Part shown: positions 7,819 to 59,893 of the stretch, one piece after another
How the letters are laid out: every line of letters begins with the position of its first letter
How positions within the stretch are numbered: the stretch's first letter is position 1
Assembly (NCBI GenBank): GCA_964016885.1
Contig: OZ024743.1
Location: 342,054,001 to 342,118,000, forward strand
Reading direction: 5' to 3'
DNA length: 64,000 bases
From: Eledone cirrhosa
Lineage: Eukaryota
Program-made: the position numbers and the translations under genes
The notes under the pieces: generated by a model
What the model was told of the DNA's origin: nothing
Database searches by the model: none
What the model saw: the letters and a program-made list of their open reading frames with translations, nothing else

Positions 7819-8889
7819 CATATGTCGAAATACATAGAAATATATTAAACCAAGGATGGAATGAATCTGCACGTGATATTTGTGAAATACACACGTATAT
7901 ATATGTATATATCTGACACCACATTAACTAAATGTTGTTCTCCTTACTTATGACGACGAGCTGGGATTGAAAGAAATATAGCTGCTACAATTGTTAATAA
8001 AACGCAACGTTGGTTTATGTATTCCTTGAATCATCCTATTAAGTGGTCGGTGTGATCATGGTTCGAATGTTTTCCAATATAGTTCTACTGTAAGAACAAA
8101 AGCCTTTATAGAAACAATAGCACTTAGTGAATTGGCTTATACTGTTTTGAGCTCTTTAAAAATATGATGCAAAGTGGCATGATTTATGATTAAACATTTT
8201 AGAAATACATTTAACATGCTCAAGAAAATTCTTTAGATATTAACTTTGATTATCCATACACGTAAAGACAATTCCAGAACGCTAAATGCAGTGTTGAGTG
8301 TTTCACGTGTTTCTTTTTTGCTATCTCTGTGTATATCTCTATGTATATCTCTTTCCTGGTGCGTTGCTGTAGGTAAGGCATTTCTAATAGGTCTATCAAC
8401 TTATTGCTGGGTATTTTGTTTTTCTGCGTCTAGATTTATTGAGAGAAACCTTGGTCAATCTCCGTCAACATTTTAAGAAACAGTATTATTGTTCCAAACA
8501 TTTCAATGCCAAACTATTGATGTATATATTCCTGACGAGAAAGTTTGAGGAAGGGAATTCGGGAATCTAAAAATTTCGTTAGCGTTTCAGTAATTTAGAT
8601 CTTTTTATTTGTGTTTATGGAATGCTTGCCAATTAATAATGCTTGAGCTGATAGGAGCCTAATGTTGTGAGTACGTGTCCAAATCTCTATCGAGTTTCCA
8701 AGTAGATGACGATTATTAAATATGCGTGAATAAGTACACGCATGTCATATACGCTTCCATAATTTGAATTTTTTCAGTTTTTGGTTGGGTCAAAATACTT
8801 TTTGTCAAGGACGTTCTGCCCACACTGTATGTTTTTAGTGTTAACATGAGCAGGGAATTTTAGCTATATATACAGTTTCTCATACCACC

Positions 8890-10130
8890 AACGGCCATAA
8901 CCTTGATAAATTCCGTAAAGATTTACTCAATACTTTTGCTAATCTTAACCTTAAAATTACTATAGATACGAACCATACCAATGCTAAGTTTCTTGACATT
9001 AATCTTGATATGCTTACTGCCTCTTTTAAACCTTATCATAAACCTAACGAAAATCTTAGATATATACACAAAGAGTCTTGCCATCCTGCTATAGTTTTTA
9101 AAAATCTTATTCCCAACATTAGCCGTAGGATTTCTACCTTATCTTCGTCTCTAGACATTTTTAACAAATCCCTTAATAACAGCGGCTCTACAGAACACAT
9201 TAAATATTTACCTACTCCTCCTCCTAAAACTAACCACAATAATAGGAAAAGGAAAATTATTTGGTTTACACCCCACCCCTTCTCTTTAACTATCAAAACT
9301 AATGTAGGAAGGAAATTCCTTGACCTTTTAGACAAACATTTTCCTCCTAATCATAGATATTATAAGATATTTAATAGAAATGTAGTTAAAATCAGTTTTT
9401 CTTGTTGCCCATCAATGAGGTCTAAAATCACCAATTCTAATCGTACGAGAATAAATCCGGCATGCATTTGCAGAAAGCCGGATGAATGCCCATTACTGTG
9501 CAAATGTAATACCAAATCCGTTGTATATGAGGCCAAAGTGACACCTTTAATTAACAACCAGCCAGCCAGGAGTGAACGATATGTTGGCATGATTCAGGAC
9601 AAGTTCAAAACCAGGTATTATGCACATGTCGCTTCTTTTAAACACTCTGATAAAAGAACAGCAACGGCTCTCGCAAATAAGGTGTGGGAATTCAAAGATA
9701 AAAACATCTCGTACTCTATGGATTGGTCTATTTTAGACCATTCCAGGGAATACCAAAGGGGCACAAAGAATTGTTCTTTGTGTACCACTAAAAAATTTAG
9801 GATTCTACAAAACTTGAAAGCCACTTCAACTTGCCTGAACCCCAAGACCGAGATCTTCAGATGTTGTCCTCACCTCAAATCACATCTGAGCTGTAACTGG
9901 ATTGACATTCCTACGATGACTCAACCACCTTTAACTTCTTCTCTGCTCTCTACGCTTTACATCCACTACGATTTGTATTACTTTCTGTACTTTTATATTC
10001 TTTTTCTCCCTTATCTCCCCTTATATTTAAACTTTTTCCTATGTTATTTATTTTCCTTATTCCCCCCTACTTTCTACCTTACCCTTTACATACCCAGCTT
10101 TTTTATTTATAGATATTTATTTCTGTGTGT
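8890..10130 (+). mobile_element. 5'-truncated Penelope-like element (RT C-terminus + GIY-YIG), probably Naiad-type
   Basis: FLDINLD, FKPYHKPN..LRYIHKESCHP, RKIIWFTP, CICRKPDECP (CxCx5C), SVVYEAKV...RYVGM, CSLC; followed by a pyrimidine-rich 3' UTR. Confidence 0.85.
9010..9930 (+). pseudogene. Penelope-like RT/GIY-YIG endonuclease ORF remnant
   Basis: First ~300 aa of ORF 9010-10368; the remainder is read-through into UTR and microsatellite. Confidence 0.8.
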
Positions 10131-11359: not shown

Positions 11360-12560
11360 CGTAGGAGGTGAGTTTTATTGTAGCAACAATAAAACAATGC
11401 AAATATCGGATAAGTAGCACTCCACAGTTTATAGGACTGGAGTATAAATAATATAAGATCAAAATATGGTTAAAAGAGTTTCAAGTATTTTATTATGCGC
11501 ATTTCAAAAACAAGTATCATCATGGGATGATATTTGCATTCTCATCAGATAAAATAGGGAAACATGATATGAAGCTTAAAAAACACTTGTGAGCAGTGAA
11601 GTTTTAAATCAACATATGAAAAATAAAGTAAGATGGATTTATGAAAATGGGAAAAAAAGGAGGGGCGTAGGAAATGGTAAGGAAGAGGAAGAAAGAAAAT
11701 AAAGGATGAAGTGGGAGGAGTATAGGAAGGAAGGATGAGAGAGGAGGAGAAATGAGTGATACAGAGAGAAAAAACATTGTTTCACAGAGAGAAATTAAAA
11801 AAACCATTGGAAGATAATAGATAATTTAAAAAGATTTTGAAATTAAAAGTTAATGAGGTTTATGGATGTTGATGTTTATGATTAAAGAAAAGGAATTAAG
11901 AATAGTATTAAAGGTTTATATATTGAAGGGTTTAATAATATGTGCGAAAAAAAAATTTATTAATATGTATTATTAGAATAAAAATATTAATGATATTAAG
12001 GATATATGTGAAAGAAGGAGAAGAATAAATGAATTATGAACTTAAAGGAATTAGTTAGGGTTTCAGTTTGTTTTTATGTATTGTAATATGTAAAAGTAAA
12101 TAAAAGGTTTAAAACGAGCGCGAAAGGAGAGAAGAAAAAAGAAAATTTAAGGAAGCCCCTTTTTTAAGTAAAAAGAAATTCAAACACTCATATATGAAAA
12201 AAACAACCTGAGCCCCCCCCCTTGTTTGAAGGACTTTGTAACGCGAACTGCGAAATTTATTATACTTATTGACCAACCAATCAAATTACTTCTCTAAAAA
12301 CCTGGCGTTTCGAGCCACTCTTTTCCATATAAAACAAGTAACATTCAAAGACCAACCAGATGTGAGAAAAACCACAGAACCTCCATCTCAACTCTACTTT
12401 TGAAAAGCAGAAGAACTGCGAAACCGGTAAAGGAACCAAATACATAGATATATTTTTTTTTAAATAAGACTCCAGTTGCATTTTCTATTTCATCTTTTTT
12501 TCTTTATACTTTCACTCGTCTAGGACACCTCGGTTATTTTTCATTTTGTAAAAAAAAACC
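11360..12560 (-). mobile_element. Degenerate Penelope-like 3' end / pseudo-LTR
   Basis: Purine-rich tract mirroring a PLE 3' UTR, ELRWR-like endonuclease remnant at 12281-12481, hammerhead near the 3' end. Confidence 0.55.
11486..11556 (-). ncRNA. Type I hammerhead ribozyme (short palindromic stem III)
   Basis: TATTTTAT-CTGATGA-extended stem II-GAAA-TGCGCA-TA^-ATAAAATA. Confidence 0.8.
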
Positions 12561-12721: not shown

Positions 12722-12774
<53 letters not shown>

Positions 12775-12781
<7 letters not shown>

Positions 12782-13438
12782 GACGTAAAATAAGAAAATT
12801 AAAAAAATTAAAAATTAACTTACTTACTAAAATTTTCACTCCAACTAATTAGTTTCTGTAATGGGATAAAGATAGTTACGCAATGTAACCATCGAGAATT
12901 CATTACGTCATCAGGGGGTCTATTCTCAGCTAAGTCCCCAGACAATGCGCGGACACTAGGGACTCATATAAAAATAATAATTTGGTGGATGGAACAGCTA
13001 GCAGGGACTGAATTCCATAGCACTGAAAAAGTTCATTGTCTCTGGTCAAGTGGCAGATTCTAAAGATTCAATCACGTGACACTGAGGCTAGGCAGTAGGA
13101 GTGGGAGGGTATTATGACAAGAGCCTACTACCACTACGATGAATTAGCAGTGGATTTGGCAAGTTTGCTCAACAAATAAATAATTTGGAGTTAAATATAG
13201 AGAATTAGTATATTTACCAACATATGCGTAGAGATGTACACTAATGCTAGCAAATACATAAGTTATGTCATAGTACCTAGGTGGTTCTATGCAGGGGGAT
13301 GCAGAACAATTATATGAAAGACGTAAAATAAGAAAATTTTAAAAATTAAAAATTAACTTACTTACTAGGTACTATGACATAACTTATGTATTTGCTAGCA
13401 TTAGTGTACATCTGTACGCATGTGTTGGTAAATATACT

Positions 13439-13447
<9 letters not shown>
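12775..13447 (-). mobile_element. Non-coding hammerhead element: ~538-nt unit, partial direct repeat, then inversion
   Basis: 12778-12829 repeated at 13316-13367; 13198-13281 inverted at 13366-13447; (TA)n/(CT)n flanks. Confidence 0.75.
12838..12919 (-). ncRNA. Type I hammerhead ribozyme, slightly degenerate
   Basis: ACCCC-CTGATGA-cGTAATG..CATTACa-GAAA-CTAATTAG-TT^-GGAGT. Confidence 0.7.
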
Positions 13448-31060: not shown

Positions 31061-31922
31061 GTCTGTTTGTGTCTGTGTCTGTGTATGTGTCTATGTTTGT
31101 TTGTCTATAAGTATTCATGTATGTACGCATGTATATATGTAAATAAGTCGCCTAAGTGTATGTGTTACCATATACAATGTCCATTACCCTTTAATGCTGA
31201 AACACTATACTACAATGTTGTCGAATAAATTAGTTAATTTGTCGATTGTCTGCTGAAATATCCTTGAATCTAACGGAAACAAATCGCATATACATAAAGT
31301 ATCGAATTCATCACTCTAGATAAACAAAATATCTTTTCAGTCATACAGATAGATTAAATCACCAATAAATATCTAAATAATGCATTATTATTGAACATTA
31401 ATTGTAATGACATAAAAATGTTGTATTGCGAATGGAATAATTGATAAAGTATGTTGAATTAGTTAAGTTCGTACACCGGAGGGAGACGAGGATACTGACG
31501 TTTCGCGCCAAGCACGTTGTTAACGAAAGATTATATTTATATTCTTTTTATGATAATAAGATCACTGAGAATATAGATTTGATGTACGTGCGGACGATAT
31601 AAAGAGGTGATTTACACAAACGCACACACATACATTTGTGGAGTGAGGGTGCGTGTGTTTATTTTTTTTTTATTAAAGGTATAGAAAATAGAATATCTTA
31701 CAGTTACTGATCGATTTCATCTCAATGGACAATCAGATGAATCTTCATTGAGATTAAACTTCATTGAGATTAAACTTTTCCGCAACTGAGAGAATTTGTA
31801 TACCTTCAATAAAAAATATATATATATTCTACTTTAAACATGGGTTTAAAATATGTTATTATTAAAACTATCAGTCTCTGAAAGGTAACCATCATATAAT
31901 ATAAAATATAATATAAGATAAT

Positions 31923-32090
31923 ATAATTGTTTCTACTTTTGGTACAAGGACATCAATTAATCCAATGTATTACTGGTACTTTATTTTATCGACCCCGTAG
32001 GGATGAAAGGCAAAGTTAACCTCGGTGGGATTTGAACTGAGACCGTATCCCGCCGAGGTTAAGTTTGCCTTTCATCCCTACAGGGTCGAT
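31923..32090 (-). mobile_element. 5'-truncated SINE A with fold-back of its own central region
   Basis: 31988-32032 is inverted at 32047-32090. Confidence 0.8.
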
Positions 32091-32251
32091 ATATAATATA
32101 ATATAATATAATATAATATATATATATATAGAGAGAGAGGGGGGTATGAGGTTAACAGAACAGTGATTTGTGGATCACATTATAGTCTGTCGATTGTGAA
32201 GCAGATAAAAAGAAGCGCTCAACGACTTGTGTAAATGGTACAAGACGGAGC

Positions 32252-32635
32252 AATATATATTAATAAGAGATCGGAGGCCCTATTCAGTTGATTCAGGTTT
32301 ATTTAAAATTCGGTTATACATATTTCACTGTGGACTATCAATTAAGATAGCCTGAGCTCTTAAGACAGCAAAACCTAAACTAGACATTGAAAGTTCCTAA
32401 TAAACCCTTACATTTGGGAAAATCTAATAATTATCCCGAAAAAGATGTTCTTTTCATGATACAGGGGGGCGGCCCGAATTTAAGGGTTTATTAGTAACTT
32501 TCAGCGTTTATTTTAGGTTTTGCCTTCTGAAGAGCTCAGGTTATCTTAACTGATAGTCCTCAGGGAAATATTTATAAAGGAGTTTTAAATAAACCTGTAT
32601 CAACTGAATATGGCTTCCGATCTGTTATTTATATA
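32252..32635. mobile_element. Inverted-repeat hammerhead element (arms about 32252-32410 / 32481-32635)
   Basis: Diverged reverse-complement arms; (TA)n flank. Confidence 0.72.
32523..32580 (+). ncRNA. Hammerhead-like motif, stem II degenerate
   Basis: CCTT-CTGAAGA-...-GAAA-TATTTA-TA^-AAGG. Confidence 0.55.
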
Positions 32636-32857
32636 TATATATATATATATATAGTATTAAGGATACTATTTATGGTTATGTATATACTAAAACCTTTTAT
32701 AGTTATATATTTATTATACCCTTAATAGTGAAAGACAGTAATTTATTACTATCTTATTACCAGTAAGATAAATAGCTCAATGTAACAACATCAGTTGTTT
32801 TACAGAGCAGTTATATAGAGATTACATGAAACAAAGTTCTGTTTAAATCATTTATCT

Positions 32858-32902
32858 GCTTACAATTGTTTCTTCCAAACCGAGGTTTAGAGTCTTCGGA
32901 GC
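32858..32902 (-). ncRNA. Hammerhead-like motif with core mutation (CCGAAGA)
   Basis: GCT-CCGAAGA-cTCTAAACC(tc)GGTTTGGAa-GAAA-CAATTG-TA^-AGC. Confidence 0.55.
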
Positions 32903-33514
32903 AATTATTCAGTGATTTTTAACATACTTGACCTCCTTTTCAACACAAGTGACATATAGAAACATATGTATATATTGACCTACAGTGGGTTGACATCCAT
33001 TATAATAATATAGCATGGTAATTTACATACAAAGATTACAGTCATATTAAAGGACAAAATTAATTTTAAAGAGTGGAATTCTGGGGTGATTTAGCTGCTC
33101 TAATAGGCAGTCCTAAGATTGTTTTTATTAACAATTGTATTATATAATACAGTCTCTCTAACTCCATATCTAATGCGTTCAAATTCTCTACACATTTTAA
33201 CTATAATCTATGATATTAAATTACCCATAATAGTTATTTTTTATCAAATTCTATTGACTTCAAATAATTGCAATATTTTTTAATATCAATGCTCACTTAT
33301 TTTATAATTTGAGTCAATTTTATCATAGGTTGTTGTTGTTGTTATGTATTTCTAATACTTTCACTGATTGAGTAGATTTGCGATAAGACGCATTCCGTCT
33401 ACAAGCACTCTACACTTTCCTAGACGGTAGAGTGTGATTTGAGGGCAATTTTGGCAGCAATTTCTAGTTGGTCGAGCGACGACGTAGAAACTTGCTCAAA
33501 CATTGCTTTGGTTT

Positions 33515-33919
33515 ATTGCGACAAATTATTACATCTCGCAGTCTACTTTGTGTTGATTGTCATCTTTAGCTATGAGCTAAGTTTATAATTATTAAATTAT
33601 TAACTATTGTCTAATAAATAATTGTTTCTACTTTAGGCACAAGGCCAGCAATTACCCAGTGCATTACTGGTACTTTATTTTATCGATCCCGTAAGGATGA
33701 AAGGCAAAGTCAACCTCGGCGGGAGGTTGACTTTCATCCTTACGGAGTCGATAAAATAAAGTACCAGTAATGCACTGGGTAATTGCTGGCCTTGTGCCTA
33801 AAGTAGAAACAATTATTTATTAGCCAATAGTTAATAATTTAATAATTATAAACTTAGCTCATAGCTAAATATGACAATCAACACAAAGTAGACTGCGAGA
33901 TGTAATAATTTGTCGCAAT
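33515..33919. repeat. ~405-bp palindrome centred in a SINE A
   Basis: Unique flank plus SINE 3' half mirrored about position ~33722. Confidence 0.92.
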
Positions 33920-33926
33920 CTAATAA

Positions 33927-34120
33927 ATAATTGTTTCTACTATTGGCACAAGGCCAGAAATTATCCCAGTGTATTACTGGTACTTTATTTTATCGACCCC
34001 CGTAAGGATGAAAGGCAAAGTTAACCTCGGCGGGATTTGAACTCAGAAGGGCAAGGGCCGTAACTCTATGCGTCAAAGCATGGCGTCTGACCCTCTACCG
34101 ATACTGCCATTCCACCACCA
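33927..34120 (-). mobile_element. SINE A, full length
   Basis: All SINE motifs present; flanked by the direct repeat TCTAATAAATA. Confidence 0.9.
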
Positions 34121-36289
34121 TCTAATAAATACCGCAATCTAATAAATAATGCTTATTGTTTATAATACATACTGTATGTATTTAATACATTTGTTAATAT
34201 ATCTATTGTTAATCTCAGAAAAAAAGAACACTAGAGATGTTGTAGTTGCGTATATACTATGCCTGGTAAAGATTGCTGCCATTTTCTCTGCTGGAATACT
34301 TTTGTCCTGCCTGTACATTTCTCAACATTGTCATTGCTGAGCAAAAGAGAAGGATCTATGTTGTCATTACACGTGCTAGAAATAGTAGACTATTTTCATC
34401 AAATCAAATCATAACCTGTCGTCTTAATGAATGGAAGAACGCATTGGAAAATGTAGTCCTAGACATACACAAAGAATGGTCACGGTTGAAATAATTTTCA
34501 ACATAAGTCAATTCGATCTCTGATAACATGTAGCCAAATAACAATAACACCTACTATATATCAATATTAACTAGAAGAACAAATAATATCAGACACCAAT
34601 ACAACATATTTTCTGCTTACTGAAATAAAACTGTCACCGGAGTTCAGAAAATGCGAGCGCCTTGTAGTAACAAATGGGAAATAAACATTGAAAGAGAACG
34701 GTGTCAGTGGCCTTGCCTTGTAGGAAAATCGATTAAAGTAACTAATATTAGTTGTAGCTGAATGATAAAGGTGGTTTTCAATTCTCAATTAACGTAAAAC
34801 ATACTTATAGTTCCAAGCAGTCTTAATAAGGAAATATAAGCAAAGTGCTAATAAAAAATACAAATTCAAGTGAAATATAGTCGTGTATTGTCTAACACAT
34901 AAATATAGACATTACCAACGTCATGAACAGAGCTCTCTCCTTCAAACAAAAGCAATAAAAAAGTAACATATATTTAAATGAAACGTTATTTAATAAACAC
35001 ACGGGAAGATATACAGAGAAACCTGCTTACATCGCCCCTACTCCTTTAAGTGCGACACTGGAGTAATTGGATGGAATCTGAATAAAGATAGTAACGACTA
35101 CCACTACTATCTATGGGCAATAGTGCCACAGTAGTTCTGCAATTTTCAATGGATATTTCAGCATTGTCTTTTCCATCATATCTTCATGGAAAATTTAGGA
35201 GCCTAAATTCCCAACCGTATAGTGGGGATAAAACTGGATTAGATTGATGGCAACTACCTCGATATACCCACGAGTTTAAGAATGAAGTATACACACTTAG
35301 TCGTAAAGGAAGTAAAATTCATATTTAAACGTTGTGCAGCACGAAAGCAGATGGTATATTCCATTTAACGTCATTGTTTATGGAGAAGTCAGCTCGTCAA
35401 CGAATTTTGAAGCACCGTTCACTACCCCTCTAGCCAATGATTGGAAAAGAAACTGTGTGATTTTGAGCTAGAATATTAATTTGAAGTTTCCGAGACAAGG
35501 GATGTTCTTCTTACACTTCAGAATGCATGTGAATATGTCAGTGTCAACGCCAGAACCTGAATATAAGACACAGAGTTTGACGCTAGATATCACGAACCAA
35601 TAGAAGCTGCCGTTAATGAGAAAAGAGATAATTGTTTCTACTTTAGGCAGAAGGCCAGCAATTACCCAGATAATAAAAGAGATAATGAAGGCGATGTAAA
35701 CGACAATCAATTGTCCAAGAAACAGAAACACTCATATACTTGAATAGCTCGATGACGTCATAAAATTGTATTATCAATATCTGTGAAACTCAAAGCAACT
35801 CCTAATCAGGAAGCAACATCAGCAAAATGAAACAATTGCTACTTGACACATCCCCTAAGCAAGTTCAACTCAACTACAGCATTAAGCAAGCTGGCGATAT
35901 TCATGACAAGCCTACTGCTGACTCAGATTTCTAAGAATATAAAAAACTGACCCGTGGAGCATCATTTCTCAACGATCTAAGAATGACAAGCTATCAACTC
36001 TAACTATACCACACCCGACGCATTAATCTCTTCTCTGATTTGCCAGATATACATTTAACATCACTTAATTTAAGAACATTATATCGTCATAAGTTAGCTT
36101 GTCAGAGCATATATCATGATTATCCGTTATGGGGATAGCATATTCAGATATATATATAAGCAAATAAAAACATTACTCACTACAGAAAGTAGAGTTACAT
36201 TGGATATTCAAGTGTCTTTTGTGGTTATGAAAAGGGAAAAGGAAGGGAAAGGTAAGGGTTCTAGTGTCACAGAAGAATGGGAAGTGTGA

Positions 36290-37280: not shown

Positions 37281-37892
37281 AAAAATCTATACATAAATTG
37301 AATTAATGATATCAATATGTGTAATTGTTCTGTACCGTAATGTTATGTTTACAATATATATATATACTCATATATTTGTATATATTATAATATGAATTCA
37401 TTATTTGTATGAATTATTTATATTGCCTCTCTCTCTCTCTCTCTCTATCTTTCTATCTGTGTGTTTGTGTGTGAGTATATCGAGAGAGAGAAAAGAGTGA
37501 GAGAGGGGCGGAGAAAGAGAAACAGAGAAATTGAAACATTTGGTAGTTGTTTGGTATCTGGAGGTCATTATTCAACACTGTCCATTTATAGATATACACA
37601 AACACGCATGTGTATACATCGTGTATGATAGAGATAAGATGTGAAAGGTCATTAATACGATTATACGATTTTTAGATAATTACCTCTTCATGATACGAAA
37701 ATAAACATCTGTATATCCAACAATACTTAATGTGTTACAAATGTTATTATTTTTTATGACAAATACTTCGGGTGTAAACGATTAGTTTCTACAAATAGGA
37801 AATTGAGCAATGTCCAAGTCTCTACGTTCTCATTTGACATATTAGAAATAGCAACCAGCTATAATAAATAAAGACATGTTGGATAATTCAGT

Positions 37893-38460
37893 AATAATTG
37901 TTTTTCATCTAAGCACAAGAGCTGAAATTTGTGTGGAGAGGAAAGTCGATTAAATCCACCTAGTATTTGACTGGTTCTTTAATTTATCGACTCCGTAAGT
38001 ACGAAAGGCAAAATTGACCACAGCGGGATTTGAACTCAGGAACACATTAAACAAAGCATTTTAATCCACACCGTAACAATTTCCCAGTTCAGCGCTCTAA
38101 TAATGGTGTGTACTTTTGGCACAAGGACAGCAATTTGAAGGGGAAAATTGATTAAACCAAATCCTCGATGGAACGTTAAGGAACGTAACTATATAATGGA
38201 AAATATATTTCCGACACTCAACTGACACTACCAAATCGATCATAATAAGGGTTTCTGATTTAGGCACAAGGCCAACAATTTTGGAGGAGGGAAAAGTCGA
38301 CTAAATCGACCCCAGTTTGTTACTGGTGCTGTATGTTATCGACCTCTTAAGGATGAAAGGCAAAACTAACTCGGCGTGATTTCAACTCAGAACGTAAGGG
38401 GCTGTAACTCTATGATGCGAAGCATGATGTCCGACACTACCGATTCTTCCAATCCACCGT
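37893..38460 (-). mobile_element. Older/longer SINE subfamily copies (37893-38040, 38245-38460)
   Basis: SINE A motifs plus an extra GGAAAAGTCGA.TAAATCGACCCC segment. Confidence 0.78.
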
Positions 38461-39309
38461 CAGTCAGCGCTCTAATAATGAAAATAAGTCTTGAATATGT
38501 TTGTGGTTAGATCTGCTTTAATAATCGAAGAGAAGTTCGATCCACTACCTGTGTGTCATTGTACTGTACCAGATATACGCTACTAAGACATTCATTGGTA
38601 AATTTCATATGATGCAATATTACAAACTAGACATGATGCATTATCTCATCGAAGTCTGTTTATTTATGTTGTTTTGTGGGCGAGAGTGTAGTAAAAATAT
38701 AAGCCTACTAGGTCTTTGTTTTCAGAGAATACATATCAAATTAGTGCTAACTTTAAATCCATAATGTAGGTGGTCGGTCGGATGTTTTGGTATCTAAGCG
38801 TACTAAATAACAGAAATAATTTGAATTAAACGCTAGTTATATTTGTAACCGTGTAGATGTCTTCTTAAATAAATTAGTATAGAAAAGATAAATTTGTGTA
38901 CTCTATGACCAATACACAAATGTAAAAATATTTTAAAAAGAATTAGTGAAGTGGAGATAATTGTTAACAACAGTTATGAACTGCGTTACCAATATACAAA
39001 TTTATACATTGAAATATACGACGGTTATGATATACAGAGTGATATTGATCAATGAAGCAAACAAAAGCGGTCTTCTAATTACATCAATGAAAATCTTTTG
39101 ATATTGTAATGTTGTTGATGTTGGTATTCGTTTCAGTAACTTCCCCCATAGTCTTGTTATATTGCCAGTGAAAACAATATAAACTTACGTGTAAACACTA
39201 ACAAAAAACAAACAACTGACCGGGATAATTTTGACGCGATAAGACAAAAAAGAATCTTTGAAATAATATTTCTTTCTCGCATCACAAGGCCATCACATTT
39301 GTGGAATGG

Positions 39310-39730
39310 TAAAGTTGATGTTGGTGGCACTTGAACTCAGATCGTAAATAGACGTAACTAAATGCCGCAAAGTATTTGTTCCAAACGCTACTGATAAAGC
39401 CAATCCACCGCCATTTTTGAAATAATAATAATTTCTTATATAGGCACAAGGCCAGCAGTTTTGGCGGAAGGGGAAGTCGATTAAATCGACCCCAGGGCGT
39501 GACGGGTACTTTATTCTATCGACCCCGTAAGGTTGAAAGGTAAAATGAACCTCGACGGGATTTGAATTCAGATCACAAAGGGCCGTATGCTGCAAATCAT
39601 ACCGATACTACCAGCCCACCTCCAATTTTGAAATAATGATAATAACGGTTTCTGATACAGGCACGAGACCAACAATTTCTTTTTGTCGATTAAATCAACC
39701 CCAATGCGTTACTATTACTTTTATCGATAT
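39310..39730 (-). mobile_element. Cluster of diverged SINE copies (main copy 39425-39622)
   Basis: SINE head, central and tail motifs. Confidence 0.75.
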
Positions 39731-42015: not shown

Positions 42016-42361
42016 TGGTTCATGTCTCGATGCAACGTAATACAGAGAGTTATGTATGTTAGTTGTTTGAAACGTGATTCTAAAACGTTTACATTTTGCT
42101 GGAAATGTTGCAATGATTTGTGGCTAAAACCGGCTGCTTTCCTAGAAATCTGATTGGTTGTCCTCTATTTTCAGCCCTTATTGGCTAAATCTGCGTTTAA
42201 TTTAACTAAATACCGCCACTACGCCCCTATTTTATTTTAAATAACTATAACGTGAAAGACTTAATGGAACAGCCAAAGTTAAACCACTTCAGAAGAAAAG
42301 AACAAGAACAACTCCTAATACTACTAATTCAAATCACGTTAATCATCAGAAGAACAGAAAA

Positions 42362-44193
42362 ATGAGTTCTCAGTACTACAAGGATTTGGTTGAGGAACAA
42401 CTGAAAGACACAACATTCTATCATGAAATACCGTCAAATATAGACCACAACATCATGAAGAAGATCAACAACCTGGCTTCAAAATACCACAACTCATTTA
42501 CTGATAAGGAAAGAGACTACATCACCAATTTTGAGCCGAAACCCAGCAACCTGTATGGCCTACCGAAAGTTCACAAGTCAAAAGAAATACAACTGGCAGT
42601 AAGAGAACAAAACAGTGAGTACATTAAATTATTACACCCAAAAGACTTAAAACTTAGACCTATTATAGCTGGTCCAACATGCCCCACTCACCGTCTAAGC
42701 AATTTTGTTGACATTATTTTGAAACCACTATGTATTCACATACCCAGTTTCATCCGGGATGATATCGACTTCCTGTCCCATTTTCCCAAAACCACGGAAA
42801 CGAATTCACTTCTACTCAGTTTTGATGTGGTAAGCCTTTACACCAACATTACACATGATTTAGGAATAAAGGCAGTTAAATACTGGGTGGAAAAACATAG
42901 AGAAGTGATTCCCATTAGATTCACAGCGCCATTTATATTAGACGCAGTTAAACTTATTCTGGAAAACAACACTTTCTTCTTCAATGGAAAGAATTACATC
43001 CAAATTAGAGGCACAGCGATGGGAACGAAGTTTGCTCCCGTTTACGCGAACTCTGTAATGGGATACTTAGAACAACAACTCTACCAAGAAATAGAGGAAA
43101 ATATAGTACTGACTTTAGAAAGTACATTGAAAAATCTTGGAAGAGATACCTTGACGACTGTTTCATCATCTGGACAGAATCTCTAGATACTCTGGATGAG
43201 TTCAATATCCTCCTGAATAACCTACACCCATCTCTCCAATTCACAAAAGAGATGAGTAGGACCAAATTACCATTCCTAGATATAATGATAATCAAAAACG
43301 ACACCACCATTACCACGGATATATATTATAAACACACAGACACCCATCAATATCTGAATTTTAAGTCGTGCCATCCACCTCATACAAAACGCAACATCCC
43401 ATACTGCCTAGCCAGAAGAATTTGTACCATTGTAGAAGATACGAATACCAGGTACAAACGCCTAACAGAACTAAGATAATTTTTGCTCAAACAAAAATAC
43501 CCATCTCTACTTATAGAAAATGGCATACAGCGGGCTATAAAAATACCTATACAACAACTTAGAACAACCCAAGGAAGAAGAAACCAAGAACTGGTCATAC
43601 CATTTATAATGACACACAACCCATGTCACCAGAATATATTCAACACTGCCAAAGCAAACCTACCGATCACTGCTCAAAGTAATGAATTAAAAGGCTTAAT
43701 CACAGATCGATCTTTGACTCTTAGTAAAAGACAGCCAAAAAATTTGAAGCAACTGCTAACAAAAGCAAAGTTTGACCTTAACAACAAAGACCAATCATTC
43801 ACTGTATCTAAATGCAATGATAATCGATGCGGCACATGTCAATCCATACACGCCGGTCAATATATGAAAACAAAAACTGGAAAAATATTCCCAAATGCAA
43901 ATATGAACTGCAAAAGCAGAAATCTAATTTACTGCATTAAATGCCCGAATTGTGAAGAACTATATGTCGGTCAAACTGGAAATGCACTATCGGAACGTGC
44001 ACGGGTACACCGTCAACAAATCAGAGACCCAAATGTCCGTCAGATACCCCTAAGAGGCCACCTGGCAACATGTGGTCAGGGAATATTTATAATATTCCCA
44101 TTCTACACATTACACAGCCCAAGTGAAATCAAGAGAACAATCAAAGAAAAGAATTTTATTGATAAATTCAAACCCAAGCTAAATGAACAATAA
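42362..44193 (+). pseudogene. Penelope RT + GIY-YIG endonuclease ORF (frameshift ~43100, stop 43477-43479)
   Basis: ORFs 42362-43186, 43252-43479 and 43483-44193. Confidence 0.9.
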
Positions 44194-44567
44194 TAACGCC
44201 TAGGGGTATTACTTCTACTACCACTATGACCACGACCACTAACAACAACAACAACAACAATAATAATAATAATAAAAGTGATGTTGATGGTGATGATTAA
44301 TAGAAAATGCTATTTTCATCATTTCAAAAAGCAAAACAATTGATACGTTGGGTATGACTATTGGACGTTAGCATGCTCAACCAGCCGTGACGCTTAAACC
44401 AATCAGCTGTAGTAATTCAGTGAAACTACACACTGATTGGTCGAAATACAGTTTACAGGGCTTTGCATTCTGGAGCCACTTTTCTCTGTATAAAATGTAT
44501 AAAAGGTAGTAAATTTACCCATCTCATTACAGTTGAAAATTGCAAACTCGACTGTCACCACATATCA

Positions 44568-44606
44568 TGAACCTGAAGATTGCGAAAGCATGAAAGTACT
44601 TGTTCA
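44568..44606 (+). ncRNA. Minimal hammerhead in the Penelope 3' pseudo-LTR
   Basis: TGAAC-CTGAAGA-tTGC(gaaa)GCAt-GAAA-GTAC-TT^-GTTCA. Confidence 0.78.
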
Positions 44607-45274: not shown

Positions 45275-45767
45275 CACACTCACACACCAGACACATATTT
45301 CGGTTGAGATCATTTGACACACGTGATGTCTAGAGGAGACTGAGGCTATCATGAATAGTGCCTTTTATACATAATTTTCTATGAATTTGTTGTTGCTTGC
45401 TATATATGCAAAGACAATCATAGATATGGTATTATTGCACTTATTGAGACAACCTGATTGTGGTGGATGTATTTCGTCTATGAGGCATTGATATAATGAC
45501 CAATATATGCTGCTGTTTCTTTTTTTTTTTAAAGTTTATGTAAAGGAGTGTCATCTTCTGATTTCGTGGCTTAGATGGGAGCGTTACCATTAGCGAATTC
45601 CTCATTCGTTACTATCATAGCTGGATAACGAAACATTTTGAACCTCTTAGAGTAAAGCCAAATTCTTGATATAAGGCACCAGTAAATTACTAGGGCCAGG
45701 ATAAGCGATTCTAACCCTGCCCCGTATGTGAGACTCATGTCAACTATCAATATGCATACAATACAAA

Positions 45768-45958
45768 GGGTGGTGGATTGGCAGTATCGGTAGAGGGTCT
45801 GACGCGATGCTTTGCAGCAAAGAGTTACGGCCCTTTATGGACTGAGTTCAAATCCCGCCGAGGTTAAATTTGCCTTTCATCCTTACGGAGTTGATAAAAA
45901 AAGTACCAGTAATATTCTAGGATGATTGCTGGCCTTGTGCCAAAGGTAGAAACAATAT
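45768..45958 (+). mobile_element. SINE A, full length
   Basis: A/B box, central domain, tail. Confidence 0.9.
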
Positions 45959-46555: not shown

Positions 46556-46660
<105 letters not shown>

Positions 46661-46802
46661 CATATATACATATATATAAATATATCAAGATAAGCAGAAC
46701 AAGTAAAATTCAACCAATTTTTCAAAATAAATCAAAATTAATATACAATTAAAATTAATCAAAATTAAAAAATATAATATAAATATTAACCTATTCAAAT
46801 GG

Positions 46803-46880
46803 CCCTAACTGTACAGTTTCACGATGCAAAACATTAGATATCACGTGGATATTAATGGAAAAGCAACGATCATCAGAGAA
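46803..46880 (-). ncRNA. Type I hammerhead with extended stem II
   Basis: TTCT-CTGATGA-tCG.TGC...GCA.CGt-GAAA-CTGTACAG-TT^-AGGG. Confidence 0.75.
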
Positions 46881-47549
46881 GCATCTTGCTGTACTAGGGT
46901 TAAAAACCCCAGGAACGACAAAATATATGACCTCACTCCAACTAATACAGGTCTGAAAGGTCGTGAAAATGACCCGTAAATACATTGGTGTATAGTGAAG
47001 GCGGGAAATCATAGACTAGCCGTCTATGATCGCTACCAAAAAAGATTTTTAACAACTAAATAGAACGACAGGTTTTTTCTCTACATACTGGAGAATGTTG
47101 AATATATCTGAGGGTACAATGTACCCCCGGAAATATATAGTGTGTCTATGATTTAAGGTGGTTCTATGGTAATAATTTGATATACCAGAACTTAATATCA
47201 AGATAAGCAGAACAAGTAAAATTCAACCAATTTTTCAAAATAAATCAAAATTAATATACAATTAAAATTAATCAAAATTAAAAAATATAATATAAATATT
47301 TACCTATTCAAATGGCCCTAACTGTACAGTTTCACTCTCCAGTATGTAGAGAAAAATCCTGTCGTTCTATTTAGTTGCTAAAAATCTTTTTTGGTAGCGA
47401 TCATAGACGGCTAGTCTATGATTTCCCGCCTTCACTATACACCAATGTATTTACGGGTCATTTTCACGACCTTTCAGACCTGTATTAGTTGGAGTGAGGT
47501 CATATATTTTGTCGTTCCTGGGGTTTTTAACCCTAGGACAGGAAAATGC

Positions 47550-47626
47550 TTCTCTGATGATCGTTGCTTTTCCATTAATATCCACGTGATATCTAATGTT
47601 TTGCATCGTGAAACTGTACAGTTAGG
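47550..47626 (+). ncRNA. Type I hammerhead (inverted copy)
   Basis: Same motif on the + strand. Confidence 0.72.
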
Positions 47627-47659
47627 TAAATATTTATATTATATATAAATATATTATAT

Positions 47660-47729
<70 letters not shown>

Positions 47730-48520
47730 ACACATGTAGTGTGAGATTCAGTGAAACATTAGTGGTGGTACCAAAACAAATACTCAATGCACAGGCAGTG
47801 TATATAGTACGGAAAAGGATGAAATTCCGTTTCCATGAATTTAGTTTTCAATTCTGTATCGACCTGTTAAGCGCGTTTTGCCAAGGATCGGCTCACGGTC
47901 ACACATAGAAGTTATAGATCCGATCTCATTAGCAAGCTGCTCCCCCAGACTAGTGATTCAAAGAAAAATATACAGTGGTTGTTGAATAGCTGGTCTCAGA
48001 AGCAGATCAACAGTGGAGTCGGATCCATAACATCCATGCGAAACGCACGTAACAGGTCAATACACACTAAAAAACTAAATACATGTAAATGAAACTTCCT
48101 CCTTTTTTTTTTTCAATATATATATAATAAAAAGGTAGATTTGTTATGTCTTCATTACGTTTAGAGTAGTGACGCGTGTTTTGCTATTGCGACTCACAAC
48201 TCAACAAACGTCATGAAGGAAAAACAAGTGGCTGCGGATATGCAATTATACCTTTGACTCCATATACAGCTCAGAGTATCACATACCATTACGGCTCCTG
48301 TGTATTTGCTGTTTTAGGCGTTTTGTAGGAAATTCAAACTTTTACTTTGTCCAAATTCCTCAGCTCTTTTAAAATCGAATATTTACTTAATTTCTTCTCT
48401 GATACAATGAGATCGGTTCCTATATTATTGAGTATTGAGCGAGCTTTTCCAGATAATCACCACATGTTATACATGTTTTATATATATATATATATATTTA
48501 ATGTATAAAAACACAGTATA

Positions 48521-48596
48521 ATTACCTCATTACCCGAGGTTTCCCGAACAGGACGAACACAAGAGACGTCCGCATTCGTTCGTCAGATAAGGTAAT
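48521..48596 (-). ncRNA. Type I hammerhead, 10-bp stem I
   Basis: ATTACCTTAT-CTGACGA-aCGAAT..GTTCGg-GAAA-CC(tcg)GG-TA^-ATGAGGTAAT. Confidence 0.82.
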
Positions 48597-48815
48597 ATAT
48601 ATATATATATATATAAATGGAATAGAATGAAACGAAATTTCATTTCTCACTCTTAGTACGGCACTTACTTAAATGTAAATATGTATGTATGTATACGTAC
48701 ATACATATATGTATACAGACGTACAGTAGTATGTATATATATACATTCATGCACACATAACATGCATAGGGAGAATATATACTTTCAGACGTTCAACCAT
48801 CTGGCAGGAAGGTAT

Positions 48816-48858
48816 ACGATGCTGACGATAGCTAATAAGATTGAAACTAGTACATCGT
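48816..48858 (+). ncRNA. Minimal hammerhead, copy 1
   Basis: ACGATG-CTGACGA-tagctaataagatt-GAAA-CTAG-TA^-CATCGT. Confidence 0.75.
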
Positions 48859-49265
48859 TCCTGTGTCAGTGTTGAACAAAAAGGTGACGTGGTTGCCTAA
48901 ACAATGTACGGTGTAATTCAGGCTGTTTGTTTGTTTACAAAAAAACAAACCGAGCATTATAATAAATGTTCGGTAAACCGATACGTGCATATATACATGT
49001 GTGCATGTATGTATATATATACATACTACAGTACGTCTGTATACATATATGTATGTCTGTATACATACATACATACATACTTACATTTAAGTAAGTGCCG
49101 TACTAAGAGTGAGAAATGAAATTTCGTTTGATTCTATTCCATTTATCGTTTTCATTGCGCCCAGCTGACTGAACTCACTTCATATGCAAATTAAGTTGCT
49201 CAGCCGTTAATACGCATAGGGAAAGTATATACTTTCAGACGTTCAACCTTCTTGCAGGAAGGTAT

Positions 49266-49308
49266 ACGATGCTGACGATAGCTAATAAACTTGAAACTAG
49301 TACATCGT
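49266..49308 (+). ncRNA. Minimal hammerhead, copy 2
   Basis: Same motif exactly 450 nt downstream. Confidence 0.75.
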
Positions 49309-49418
49309 TCCTGTGTCAGTGTTGAACAAAAAGATGACGCGGTTGCCTAAATTCGGGCTGTTTTTTGTTTACAAACAAACAAACCGAGCATTATAATAAA
49401 TGTTCGGTAAACCGATAC

Positions 49419-49459
<41 letters not shown>

Positions 49460-49543: not shown

Positions 49544-49575
<32 letters not shown>

Positions 49576-49600
49576 AATGTATAAAAATCAATACAATATA

Positions 49601-49678
49601 ATTACCTCATTACCAGAGGTTTCCCGGATGAGGCGAATACGAAATAAACGACTTCATTCGTTCGTCAGACGAGGCAAT
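49601..49678 (-). ncRNA. Type I hammerhead (family of 48521)
   Basis: ATTGCCTCGT-CTGACGA-..-GAAA-CC(tct)GG-TA^-ATGAGGTAAT. Confidence 0.8.
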
Positions 49679-50464
49679 ATAAAACATGGGCAAATACTTA
49701 AAAAAACACATCAAGAAAATCAAAAAAAGATATAGATAAATGAAATAGAAATTGAAATATATAAAAATCTATCAAGAAATATATTTAAGTGTGTGTATAT
49801 GTATGTATATACGCTCACAGATGTGCATATATGTATATGCGCACATGTATATGTATAGTGAGAAAGTGTGCGTAATTCTAAAATTTAGGGCAAATGTATC
49901 TATATGTCTGTATTATACAGACAGAAATTGTTACATCGTAAATATATGAATATGAAGGCGCGCGCATAACACGCCTGGACACTCGTACACTTAGATGCGG
50001 AAAGAAAGGAGGTAAGGGAGTGTAATAATTAAAAGAAAAGTATCAGTCTCGATATATTTATAAAAATATAATAACGATAAATTAGAAAGAAAAGATATTA
50101 GAAAGAAAAAATTAAAGAAAACAAAAAAAGAGGGGGTACATACATACACAGACACGCGTGTCTCACAAAAGAAATGTAAAAATAATTATGCTTATATACA
50201 CACGCACACTTACACTTCCATACGTTCGATACGTACATACACACACACACACACACATACTATACTCACGCATATAAACCTGTTTGCATGCCCACGTGTG
50301 AAACTGAGTAAGTAAAAAAAGGGGAAGGGGGGGGGGAGAAGAAAAAAGGAACAAAACATAAAACCGAGATGTCAAAATCACAATCACGGATATAAAGACA
50401 CGTACACATACGCATAATATATACATATACACACACACAAACACCTGTACACACACACATATAT

Positions 50465-50543
<79 letters not shown>

Positions 50544-51307
50544 CATACACGTACGCGCGCGCACACACGTAGTCACTCATGTACATATATAAAAAGTATA
50601 CACACATTAAGGCGTTCAGCCATATTGAATTGTGGATAAATAAGTACAAATATAAAATTGTAAGATAGGCTGCGCAAAAATAAAATAAAAATAAAAATGA
50701 AAAATATATCTGGCTGAAAAACACGAAAGACATGTGTAATCAGTTAGTGGAGGAAAAAGGGAAGTAAAAGAAGGGGAAGTAAAAAATAGAAAATAGGAAG
50801 TGGATCGGAGAATAAAAGGGGGGGGGGACGCGTGTCTGTGTATGTATGTACCCCCTCTTTTTTTGTTTTCTTTAATTTTTTCTTTCTAATATCTTTTCTT
50901 TCTAATTTATCGTTATTATATTTTTATAAATATATCGAGACTGATACTTTTCTTTTAATTATTACACTCCCTTACCTCTTTTCTTTCCGCATCTAAGTGT
51001 ACGAGTGTACAGGCGTGTTATGCGCGCGCCTTCATATTCATATATTTACGATGTAACCATTTCTGTCTGTATAATACAGACATATAGATACATTTGCCCT
51101 AAATTTAGAATTACGCACACTTTCTCACTATACATATACATGTGCGCATATACATATATGCACATCTGTGAGCGTATATACATATATATACACACACCTA
51201 ACTATATTTCTTGATAGGTTTTTATATATTTCAATTTCTATATAATTTATCTATATCTTTTTTTGATTTTCTTGATGTGTTTTTCTAAGTATTTGCCCAT
51301 GTTTTAT

Positions 51308-51385
51308 ATTGCCTCGACTGACGAACGAATGAAGTCGTTTATTTCGTATTCGCCTCATTCGGGAAACCTCTGGTAATGAGGTAAT
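51308..51385 (+). ncRNA. Type I hammerhead (inverted copy)
   Basis: ATTGCCTCGA-CTGACGA-aCGAATGA..TCATTCGg-GAAA-CCTCTGG-TA^-ATGAGGTAAT. Confidence 0.78.
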
Positions 51386-51485
51386 TATATTGTATTGATT
51401 TTTATACATTAAATTTTGCTCTGATACTTACATAGAGCACTCTTCATTTCTATGACCTTTTCTGTTTGCAACGGAATTTTCAATA

Positions 51486-57029: not shown

Positions 57030-58883
57030 TTTAATAATAATAATAATGATTTCATTTATTTGCCACAAGGGCCGACATGTAGGGGATAATACAAAGACAC
57101 AGACAGTGGGGGTTTACAATAAGGTCGAGTAAAAATGCGCAATGGCAAGAGTAATTTAACAATAAAGATATACATATTTAAAATAAACTATGCATAAATG
57201 TAACAAAGTAAATTCCACTATGGGGGGGACTCAGGGGTGACTCAGGTACCCCACCAATCCTGAACCACCCTGATCTTCAGGGAGAGCACCCCTCTCCTCA
57301 AATAAGCTACCCTATAGGCGCATGGACAGAGTAGGCCCATTCACCCCGGCCATTCTCGCTACATTCATCCACCTTTTAGCAAATGTACTGAGGCGGTAGC
57401 ACTTCTTTCTCAACCCTAACCTTCCTTTCCAGATGAAACTTGAAGAAGTTGATGAGGAAATGGCCGAAGTGAAAAGTGTGTGTCTTCAGTCCTTTCAAAC
57501 TGGTCCACCATATAACATCTTTCATAACTGCCTCCAGACCGAGGAAAACTGCCTGCTTTTCATGGCCAAAGGAACGCGGCGGGTCAATATTCACTATGGA
57601 CTGTTCGACATAACTCCACAAGTCAGTAATGCACGGACATTGAACAAGTGCATGCAGAACAGTTCGTCGCTCTGTGCGCATCTCGGGAAGGTCCGTCTGA
57701 CAGCCTTTCTGCGACTGTAGAGTTTATCCGGAACCGGCAGTGAGCCCCCCCCCCCCCCTCCCGGTAGCACTGCCAAGTGAGGGATTTCTGGAAATAGTCC
57801 ATCGTCCCCGGCTGGAAAGTAAAGTCCTGCAGAACAACTGGTCAGTTCAACTTCGTCGAGTCCCAAAGCTTCTCCGAGTGAGTCATTGCACTTCCCCCCA
57901 GTAATCCTCTATAGAACTCGAGAGTGGAAGTTCCACTGATTGCATTGCCTGCTTGGTAGAGGGCAGTGTGTGCCTGGCAACATTCCAGGTGCCAGTCACC
58001 CAGTCTTGTTCTCTTGAGGACCCAGAACTACAGCTCAGTCAAAGAAACGAGCTGCGGAAAGGCCCGTCTGATAAACGGCGACTACACCTGTTCACCGTTT
58101 AGGCAGAATATCGGAAGATATCGCAGCCTCAGAGAATGTATGCGCATCATTAGCCACGGCATGCCCAGCTCTCCGCGTAGAGGATGCTGACAGCAGATGG
58201 ACTGCCTCACCAACGGAACTTGTCCTCTCCACAAGAATTTGAAGAGGCGCCGTTCTAACTTGGCGAGGCGCGGATGAGGGCAAGGTACGACGGTCAGGCG
58301 GTAGTATGACGGACGCAATGTACGCATTCGCCACCTCCGCGCGACCTTTCAGTGATAGCTTCCTCGCAGCCTATTTTTGAGTGACACTGGCTACCCTGCT
58401 CGGTACCTCTCCCAATTCTTTTCACCTGGAGGTCTGGTCCGAACAAAACCCCGAGCAACTTTACCGGTCCGTCCGTCCAGCGCCACACCACTCTGTTTGA
58501 CGGCATGGACTTGCTTCTCCAGGTTCCGAGCTGCAAGCCCACCGACTTTTCCGGGTTAAGTTTGGCTCCTGTCAACCTTTCATATTCCTTCAATAAGGTG
58601 CCGACCACCTCGATTTCTGAGGTGTCTGACACCATCGCAGTGATGTCGTCGGCATAAGTCGACACAGACTTTCCACCTCCCTGTTCGAGCGGGATGCCGT
58701 GCAACAGCTCCAGCTTCCGCAGTAAAGGCTCGAGAGTCAATACGTACAGAAGGGTAGAGAGAGGGAACCCTTGACGGGAGAGCCGAAACGGTTCCGTGAA
58801 GTGGCCATTAACCTTGACCACCGAGCAGGTGCTGCTGTCCATTGCAGCGATCCAGCTTCTGAAGACAGTGCCGAAGCCAGGGA
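57030..58883 (-). mobile_element. Second Tx1/L1-clade LINE, 5'-truncated, with (TTA)n tail
   Basis: STYADDIT, NPEKSVGLQLGTW, SICCQHP..GELGMPWL, HALVQCP; homologous to 26740-28640. Confidence 0.9.
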
Positions 58884-59893
58884 ACGTAGGAGGGAACGTA
58901 GGAGGGCCTGCGATGGGGCACCTGGAGAGGCAGATCCATGCCATCCAGCGGACCGGTTTAATTGCTCTGGACCACCAGATGGACAAAAACTGGGACAAAG
59001 TGACGAACAGACTGACCAATTTCACCCAGCAATGGGTTGAGAGAAAGCTGTCCATGAAAAGAAGAGCGGATATGGCAAGCGCGTACATCACGTCCGTTAT
59101 CCACTACCACCTAAACGTTGTGCCTTGTCCAAGACTTGGTCTAATTGCCCTGGAGCGTTTACTGCTCCAAATCTTGAGCAATGGACGCGTTCCGATGGAC
59201 ACGTTGTCCATCTTCTGTCAACACACACTGCGTGGGGGACTGGGAATGCTGTGGAGGATAATGCACAAACATGCACTGAAGCTACGAGATATCCATCTTT
59301 TCCTTAAAGGTGAACAGGCTTTCCTCAAAGTCCCTGGCTTCGGCACTGTCTTCAGAAGCTGGATCGCTGCAATGGACAGCAGCACCTGCTCGGTGGTCAA
59401 GGTTAATGGCCACTTCACGGAACCGTTTCGGCTCTCCCGTCAAGGGTTCCCTCTCTCTACCCTTCTGTACGTATTGACTCTCGAGCCTTTACTGCGGAAG
59501 CTGGAGCTGTTGCACGGCATCCCGCTCGAACAGGGAGGTGGAAAGTCTGTGTCGACTTATGCCGACGACATCACTGCGATGGTGTCAGACACCTCAGAAA
59601 TCGAGGTGGTCGGCACCTTATTGAAGGAATATGAAAGGTTGACAGGAGCCAAACTTAACCCGGAAAAGTCGGTGGGCTTGCAGCTCGGAACCTGGAGAAG
59701 CAAGTCCATGCCGTCAAACAGCGTGGTGTGGCGCTGGACGGACGGACCGGTAAAGTTGCTCGGGGTTTTGTTCGGACCAGACCTCCAGGTGGAAAGAATT
59801 GGGAGAGGTAACGAGCAGAGTAGCCAGTGTCACTCAAAAATAGGCTGCGAGGAAGCTATCACTGAAAGGTCACGCGGAGGTGGCGAATGCGTA
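58884..59893 (+). mobile_element. Tx1 fragments: diverged piece 58900-59330 plus inverted duplicate 59331-59893 of 58320-58883
   Basis: Near-identical ~560-bp reverse-complement arms. Confidence 0.88.

Follow-up and report, generated by a model that had tools for sequence, protein, structure and literature searches.

The window, which is the whole 64-kb stretch of DNA analysed here, consists of AT-rich animal DNA that is rich in (TA)n and (CA)n microsatellites and decayed retroelements. A SINE of a type present in octopus suggests that the DNA may be from a cephalopod. At positions 46682–47194 it contains a complete 513-nt non-coding monomer (copy 1; 32% GC), whose RNA sense is the minus strand. 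The unit restarts at 47195 as a 5'-truncated, pseudo-LTR-like copy of 141 nt on the same strand (copy 2, 47195–47335). The direct repeats (46682–46822 and 47195–47335) are spaced by 513 nt and identical at 140 of 141 positions, in agreement with the unit length and restart point given in a preliminary description of this DNA. Copy 2 retains the GAAA, stem III, cleavage site (47320), and 3' strand of stem I of a hammerhead ribozyme, and is without the CUGAUGA. Its end at 47335 is 2 nt 5' of G12 (47333) of this second minus-strand ribozyme half, such that the restart stops inside the second ribozyme, just past its GAAA, as described earlier.

The strand switches at 47335/47336, a junction with 2–3 nt of microhomology. 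From there, BLAST and alignment identified an inverted copy of the unit on the plus strand (47336–47626, corresponding to unit positions 47094 to 46804). This inverted arm differs from the reverse complement of 46804–47094 at 5 of 291 nt, and the match of the whole arm to the unit has an E-value of 7e-146. A 15-nt deletion in the arm, flanked by two TAGG words, separates it from the final 18 nt of the inverted copy (47627–47644, plus strand), which end 36 nt 3' of the cleavage site. The inverted copy totals ~309 nt and its end at 47644 corresponds to unit position 46771; the strand switch, the copied length of about 300 nt, and the end point given before were all correct. The outer 3' end of the insertion, at 46682, borders a U-rich stretch of 125 nt located 3' of the cleavage site on the minus strand (46682–46806), and the two 3' ends of the insertion are 89 nt apart.

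The insertion is located within a microsatellite, the left part of which (46560–46681) is (CT)n(CA)n(TA)-rich and the right part of which (47660–47733) is (TA)n(CA)n. The ATAT at the 46682 end is common to the unit and the flank. The right junction contains 15 nt of TA-rich filler or duplication in the alignment (47645–47659), which may have arisen by slippage while priming, or later. A 15-mer at 46671–46685 (plus strand), overlapping the unit by 4 nt, has a word match at 47660–47674, with the 15-mer also at 47640–47654, and is the candidate target-site duplication. Because this 15-mer occurs seven times in the window (three at the locus and four elsewhere), which contains 70 TA arrays, sequence support for it being a target-site duplication is moderate.

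Copy 1 carries a type I hammerhead (46797–46886, minus strand), as judged from a descriptor, its predicted fold, and related copies. In 5' to 3' order it is composed of the 5' strand of stem I (46886–46877), the CUGAUGA (46876–46870), a stem II of 49 nt with U.U at its base (46869–46821), the GAA (46820–46818), a palindromic stem III of 10 nt (46817–46808), U at H17 (46807) in a GUU site with the predicted cut after 46807, and the 3' strand of stem I (46806–46797). The motif thus has the type I order of CUGANGA core, GAA, A15.1-U16.1, and NUH triplet. Stem III has 3 bp and a tetraloop as a monomer, and forms a dimer helix of −13.4 kcal/mol. The inverted copy contains a second hammerhead on the plus strand (47544–47626; core C3 at 47554, predicted cut after 47623). 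This was described as a second full hammerhead, and its core and stems II and III are indeed intact, but it is not full: because of the 15-nt deletion most of stem I is gone, with only 3 nt left of its own 3' strand and about 3–4 bp possible. The stem I duplex is −2.0 kcal/mol in the plus-strand hammerhead versus −4.3 kcal/mol in copy 1.

The hammerhead descriptor, run over the 64-kb window with 100 block shuffles as a control, yielded 13 matches versus a mean of 0.43 (maximum 2) in the shuffles; a palindromic stem III occurs in eight of the 13 versus 0.06 in the shuffles. Rfam had no hammerhead match at the gathering score in the 64 kb, missing all 13, and a separate Rfam search returned only a chance match to S15 (E 6.7). 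The long stem II may account for these misses. At 49 nt, stem II is unusually long, as had been stated, in comparison with canonical hammerheads, but not within the window, where others have 51 and 36–38 nt. That Rfam misses hammerheads with a long stem II implies that ribozymes are undercounted in such genomes. Further hammerhead-like motifs without an Rfam match stand alone at 11548(−), 13594(+), 32527(+), and 54059(+).

The hammerhead motif folds no better than shuffled sequences (z −0.8 to +0.8), and the active fold of copy 1 (−10.1 kcal/mol) lies 5.9 kcal/mol above the minimum free energy (MFE) fold (−16.0 kcal/mol). The 513-nt unit has a z of −5.0 when folded as a circle; as 2 of 16 control strands had values of −4.9 or below and 5 of 16 reached −3.3, we dropped this value as strong evidence. 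In the minus-strand MFE fold of the locus, the inverted arm is the pairing partner of 87 of the 89 nucleotides of the ribozyme. A read-through transcript is predicted to form a hairpin of ~290 bp that would bury the ribozyme, and for this reason the copy at this locus is probably inert, except if a transcript were to begin within the unit. Given such a start, one may speculate that the copy 1 core could cut the copy 2 half-site and thereby free a monomer.

The longest stop-free stretch in the unit is 74 amino acids. None of the frames, nor tblastn of the unit against the rest of the window, nor Pfam (0 of 8 stop-free stretches at E≤1) revealed any coding trace, an RT or GIY-YIG open reading frame included, consistent with the earlier statement that there is no coding remnant. 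Elsewhere in the window, profile matches identified a broken Penelope/Poseidon-like element (42251–44600) with RT and GIY-YIG in pieces; in its ORFs (42251–44193) the RT match is weak (E 4.5e-4) and the GIY-YIG match has an E of 1.6e-6. A short hammerhead is located at 44573, in the 3' region of this element. The C-terminal half of a second PLE-like ORF (8845–9990) falls in atlas clusters with HTH_animal and GIY-YIG, and has no match in Pfam. We take this ORF to be Neptune-like from its motifs. A U-rich tract and a TA/GT microsatellite adjoin its 3' end, and it is a candidate relative of the mobilising enzyme. By BLAST, the 513-nt unit has no DNA similarity to the window's PLEs, nor to a pLTR within the window.

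The tandem-plus-inversion layout is not special to this locus, as it recurs at 12773–13446 and 48613–49455. The first of these insertions, flanked by TA/CT microsatellites, contains a 538-nt unit (12773–13310, with the insertion continuing to 13446) with a 57-nt restart and an 82-nt inversion. Its hammerhead (core at 12914, minus strand) has a stem II of 51 nt and a palindromic stem III, and the z of its circular fold is −4.6. The inversion start is not adjacent to the stop of the first cDNA in this case. The second insertion (48613–49455, region to 49540; plus strand) contains a 450-nt unit (48758–49207) with a 264-nt restart (87%) and a 150-nt inversion, and has two complete ribozymes in tandem (48822 and 49272). 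With three insertions of this kind in the 64-kb window, the 513-nt locus itself is unremarkable; its value lies in its clear footprint.

The window contains other repeats as well. A hammerhead element at 49571–51415 has inverted arms of 589 nt (98%), with cores at 49668 (−) and 51318 (+) and a stem II of 38 nt. Its arms include a long, apparently non-coding, microsatellite-rich stretch (49780–50165 and 50820–51210), and a short related copy with a hammerhead at 48586 (−) occurs in 48490–48590. Both this element and the 513-nt unit have a splice-donor-like AG/GTAAT 3' of the cut site. To the right of the 513-nt locus is a long imperfect rod-like hairpin (47798–48133), perhaps a MITE-like or fold-back remnant; the stretch 47735–48247 has MFE z values of −8.4 and −7.5 for the two strands and no match in Rfam. 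A 556-nt inverted repeat (58328–59886, 99%), which is either a young inversion or an assembly fold-back, is located inside an RT-coding fragment that is presumably L1/Tx1-like, going by its motifs. A SINE-like repeat is present in many copies (31918–34130, 37892–39587, and 45750–45950, with an inverted pair at 33610–33920). The region 31918–34047 was considered as a further tandem/inversion insertion and rejected, as it consists of SINE-like copies.

Related copies of the 513-nt unit were sought in public sequencing runs. Four of the nine listed runs were compared (X1, X5, X6, and X7; X2, X3, X8, X9, and X4, which had a small share, were left out). X1, which is from organism A, not necessarily the window's species, has 331 variant contigs on the unit that cover 29 of 29 bins, with depth not equating to copy number. 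X7 has 116 reads on the unit, X5 has 18 contigs, and X6 has 12. At the 80% likeness used for comparison, at which joints can stem from other repeats, the head-to-tail joint (47191 to 46682) was found in X1 (depth 208), X7 (3 reads), and X5 (1 contig at a depth of 2.4, below 5), and was absent from X6. These occurrences of the joint come from three studies with two organism labels, or from two studies if X1 is set aside because it may be the source of the window. As three of the four compared runs contain the joint, the 513-nt unit is, on sequence comparison, a non-coding repeat family and not a local accident. The absence of other copies had been named as grounds for rejecting the original description; instead, X1 has copies over every bin, and X1, X5, and X7 have the joint. 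None of the listed pieces in the four runs spans the whole unit, and the strand-switch joint of this locus is listed in none of them. X7 reads also cease matching near 46763, with mixed flanks. Pattern scans for relatives gave no matches in metagenome_contigs or viral_contigs, as expected for an animal repeat.

The related copies differ from copy 1 in ways that keep the hammerhead paired. These variants are unphased, and covariation was judged by matching depths among the 40 of 80 variant rows listed. The U.U at 10.1/11.1 is replaced by G-C in X5 (a depth of 15.7 out of 23.5 at each of the two sites), the G-C at 10.3/11.3 by U-A (X1, X7, and X5), and the U.U at 10.4/11.4 by U-A through a change at 11.4. 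In X7, the centre of stem III is changed jointly from TA to AT, with the palindrome kept (16 of 27 reads), and H17 is changed from U to A (26 of 32). The core is unaltered among these listed variants. These compensatory changes argue for the hammerhead fold, which folding energy alone does not.

Taken together, we consider it likely that the locus is a young insertion of a non-autonomous PLE, that is, a non-LTR retrozyme, with a 513-nt repeating unit. A Penelope-type partial-tandem and inverted insertion, as first suggested, is supported by the layout of the locus in (TA)n, which is the pattern described for PLEs by Craig 2021 (PMC8557442). It might be instead that the unit represents no more than the pseudo-LTR of an autonomous PLE, produced by successive 5'-truncated cDNAs of an RNA with an ORF or as a recent derivative with an internal deletion, and was never an independent short RNA. 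Type I hammerheads do occur in PLE pLTRs, with opposite-strand pairs 100–700 bp apart having been called truncated PLEs (Cervera 2014, PMC4209133), and Li 2026 (10.64898/2026.07.22.740005) derives retrozymes from pLTRs. A deletion joint might also give the dip in X1 depth at 47078–47113, as well as the module at 47100–47180 that is common to families differing on both sides of it. However, the restart joint is not locus-specific, being present in X1, X5, and X7; coverage in X1 is complete (29 of 29 bins), with the share of X1 records running on unlike being 0; and there is no coding trace in any frame. A pLTR origin fits a non-LTR retrozyme too, and the alternative is distinct only in holding that the unit was never independent, which we regard as unlikely.

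A second alternative is that a single unit was inserted and that the tandem and fold-back arose later at the DNA level, through slippage or fork-associated template switching, or through a second, nested insertion of the same family. The flanks are prone to slippage. Five letters are private to copy 1 (46788, 46885, 46888, 46893, and 47052), and at these positions the letter of the family is found in copy 2 or in the inverted copy, such that the pieces may derive from different templates or times. The sixth difference, at 47073, is not among the variant rows listed. These same letters argue in the other direction, however, since a later local copy of copy 1 would share its private letters and does not, with three of the five lying within 9 nt and possibly representing one event. 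In addition, one candidate target-site duplication frames the whole structure, and the same layout occurs in two unrelated families within 64 kb. We therefore consider a DNA-level origin quite improbable. An assembly or library artefact (fold-back chimera or collapsed repeat), to which the lack of the strand-switch joint in X1, X5, X6, and X7 might point, is highly improbable, as there are 5 differences in 291 nt between the arms as well as a deletion of 15 nt, and family letters are found in the inverted arm, whereas a chimera would match its source exactly.

For a retrozyme insertion, the junctions suggest that the reverse transcriptase of a PLE copied the unit by priming from both target strands. 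The GIY-YIG endonuclease of a PLE would nick the two strands of the TA microsatellite ~15 nt apart. Reverse transcription would then be primed by the first 3' end at an internal site of the RNA, which lies 125 nt 3' of the ribozyme's point of cleavage and makes 46682 the putative first RT start; the first cDNA would copy 654 nt (1.27 units) from there, across the head-to-tail joint. The second strand would prime from the right flank on an AU-rich tract located 36 nt 3' of the cleavage site, with 47644 as the putative second priming site; its cDNA would skip 15 nt at the TAGG microhomology and copy ~309 nt in all. The two cDNAs would finally be joined at the 2–3-nt microhomology. The second cDNA starts 51 nt before the stop point of the first, and one continuous template would need to be 926 nt (1.8 units) in length. 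Because three passes cross an intact GUU/A site, the template would be an uncleaved multimer or a re-ligated circle, and not a cleaved linear monomer. The hammerhead in the family most likely would cut multimeric transcripts to monomers, and the palindromic stem III would allow dimeric folding. In LINE-1 twin priming, the second target strand primes near the stop of the first cDNA and the junction has microhomology. The 51-nt overlap and junction microhomology here are similar, but at this locus a poly(A) tail and L1 sequence are both lacking, and the template exceeds a single unit.

One 13-nt motif, CATAGAACCACC, is common to the 513- and 538-nt units; it was first spotted by eye and is based on these two units (n=2). 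In the 513-nt unit it is located at 47157–47168 (minus strand), which on a tandem or circular RNA would be 26 nt 3' of the putative RT start, and in the 538-nt unit at 13280–13291, 19 nt past the restart. Whole-unit homology between the two is not significant (local score 33 versus a shuffle mean of 30.5 and maximum of 50), and the global alignment is uninformative. A 13-mer common to the first 60 nt was seen in 0 of 5000 shuffles. When 4264 windows of 60 nt were taken from real sequence, a 13-mer match was found at the 513- and 538-nt loci only. Scanning the window for the motif with at most one mismatch gave two matches versus 0.31 expected, one of the two being the query itself. Organism C also has the 68-nt segment 47112–47179, with 8 differences, and one letter of the motif is changed in X5 and X6. 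A hairpin around the motif is present in the MFE fold of the 513-nt unit, not in that of the 538-nt unit, and the motif is absent from the 450-nt unit. A further common word, a 14-mer found at 46933–46946 and at the stem III/cut site in the 538-nt unit, was borderline, with 31 of 2000 shuffles reaching 13 or more, and was rejected; there is no second ribozyme core at 46933–46946.

CATAGAACCACC is a candidate RT-recruitment signal, and it may also reflect common ancestry without function. We tentatively raise the possibility, which we think somewhat doubtful, that large (450–540 nt) long-stem-II hammerhead units parasitise one PLE enzyme through a short common cis signal that only a circle or multimer can present, because the motif lies beyond the 3' end of the copied part. 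If true, this would give a reason for the tandem or circular form that animal retrozymes must have, and would constitute junction-level evidence for PLE proteins mobilising animal retrozymes. So far, the case for PLEs mobilising animal retrozymes has been built on their co-occurrence and on similarity to pLTRs (Cervera 2020, and Li 2026, which leaves the mechanism open). The present locus adds a non-coding unit having PLE tandem-plus-inversion junctions, with ribozyme sites intact in three copied passes. If the motif is a recruitment signal, the link between PLEs and retrozymes is testable in the existing in vitro PLE assay.

The class to which the locus belongs is already published, namely non-LTR retrozymes as non-autonomous PLEs, and the locus is a new member. 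No report of cephalopod retrozymes was found in the literature searched, which included few subscription papers and whose supplements may list such families; the repeat annotation of O. vulgaris has no uses of "ribozyme" or "retrozyme". As in the non-LTR retrozymes described by Cervera 2020 (PMC7229834) and Li 2026 (10.64898/2026.07.22.740005), the unit here is short, non-coding, and low in GC (32%, below 50%), has one type I hammerhead in a head-to-tail arrangement (1.27 units here), is multi-copy, and occurs beside PLEs; in the view of Li 2026, animal retrozymes are derived from PLEs and non-autonomous. The U.U at the base of helix II is likewise seen in the axolotl HHR_Amex2. At 513 nt the unit exceeds the 150–450 bp reported in Cervera 2020 and is within the 51–972 bp of Li 2026, and its stem II is 49 nt as compared with ~4 bp. 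Target-site duplications of non-LTR retrozymes, when present, are >4 bp, and the candidate here is 15 nt in a TA array. Li 2026 designates as active those retrozymes with two consecutive complete hammerheads. This particular locus falls outside that designation because copy 2 is without the CUGAUGA, and the 450-nt unit would come under it because it has two complete ribozymes in tandem. Of nine retrozyme dimers assayed in Li 2026, only one showed cleavage. Inverted insertion junctions are not analysed in the passages of Cervera 2020 and Li 2026 compared here, and may be in the supplements; the word "inverted" has no occurrence in the main text of Cervera 2020 and one, in a reference, in Li 2026.

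PLE minimal hammerheads with a palindromic helix III and an enlarged helix II were already described in Cervera 2014 (PMC4209133), as were pairs of ribozymes on the two opposite strands. The hammerhead here resembles these in being type I, in both of these helices, in its U-rich/AU-rich flanks, and in its predicted dimeric action. It differs in that helix III has 3 bp and a tetraloop, helix II extends far beyond 7–8 bp, and G10.1-C11.1 is U.U at this locus, although G-C in relatives. PLE insertions of the Penelope/Poseidon, Neptune, and Naiad types (Craig 2021, PMC8557442) similarly have a partial tandem pseudo-LTR, an adjacent inverted 5'-truncated copy, (TA)n targets, and a hammerhead near the 3' end, and non-autonomous versions that make pLTRs are reported there (Chlamys/MRC1). 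Unlike these insertions, the present one has no RT/GIY-YIG ORF, and its 3' ends are 89 nt apart as compared with a "tail" of 30–40 bp.

The biochemically characterized PAc, a Poseidon element of Anolis, provides a further comparison (Frangieh 2024, PMC11167929). PAc is autonomous and the AC-rich stem-loop at which it starts is inside its ORF, whereas the candidate motif here is non-coding; PAc is reported to prime without homology, and in this it differs from the present locus, where microhomology is seen at both ends. In that work, purified PLE protein cut and extended both strands, favouring AT-rich DNA, and reverse transcription started internally, at the AC-rich stem-loop 3' of the ribozyme, on unprocessed RNA for which cleavage was not required. 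The present locus likewise has an AT-rich target with both strands apparently extended, a putative internal RT start ~85–125 nt 3' of the cut site, and an intact ribozyme site in the template.
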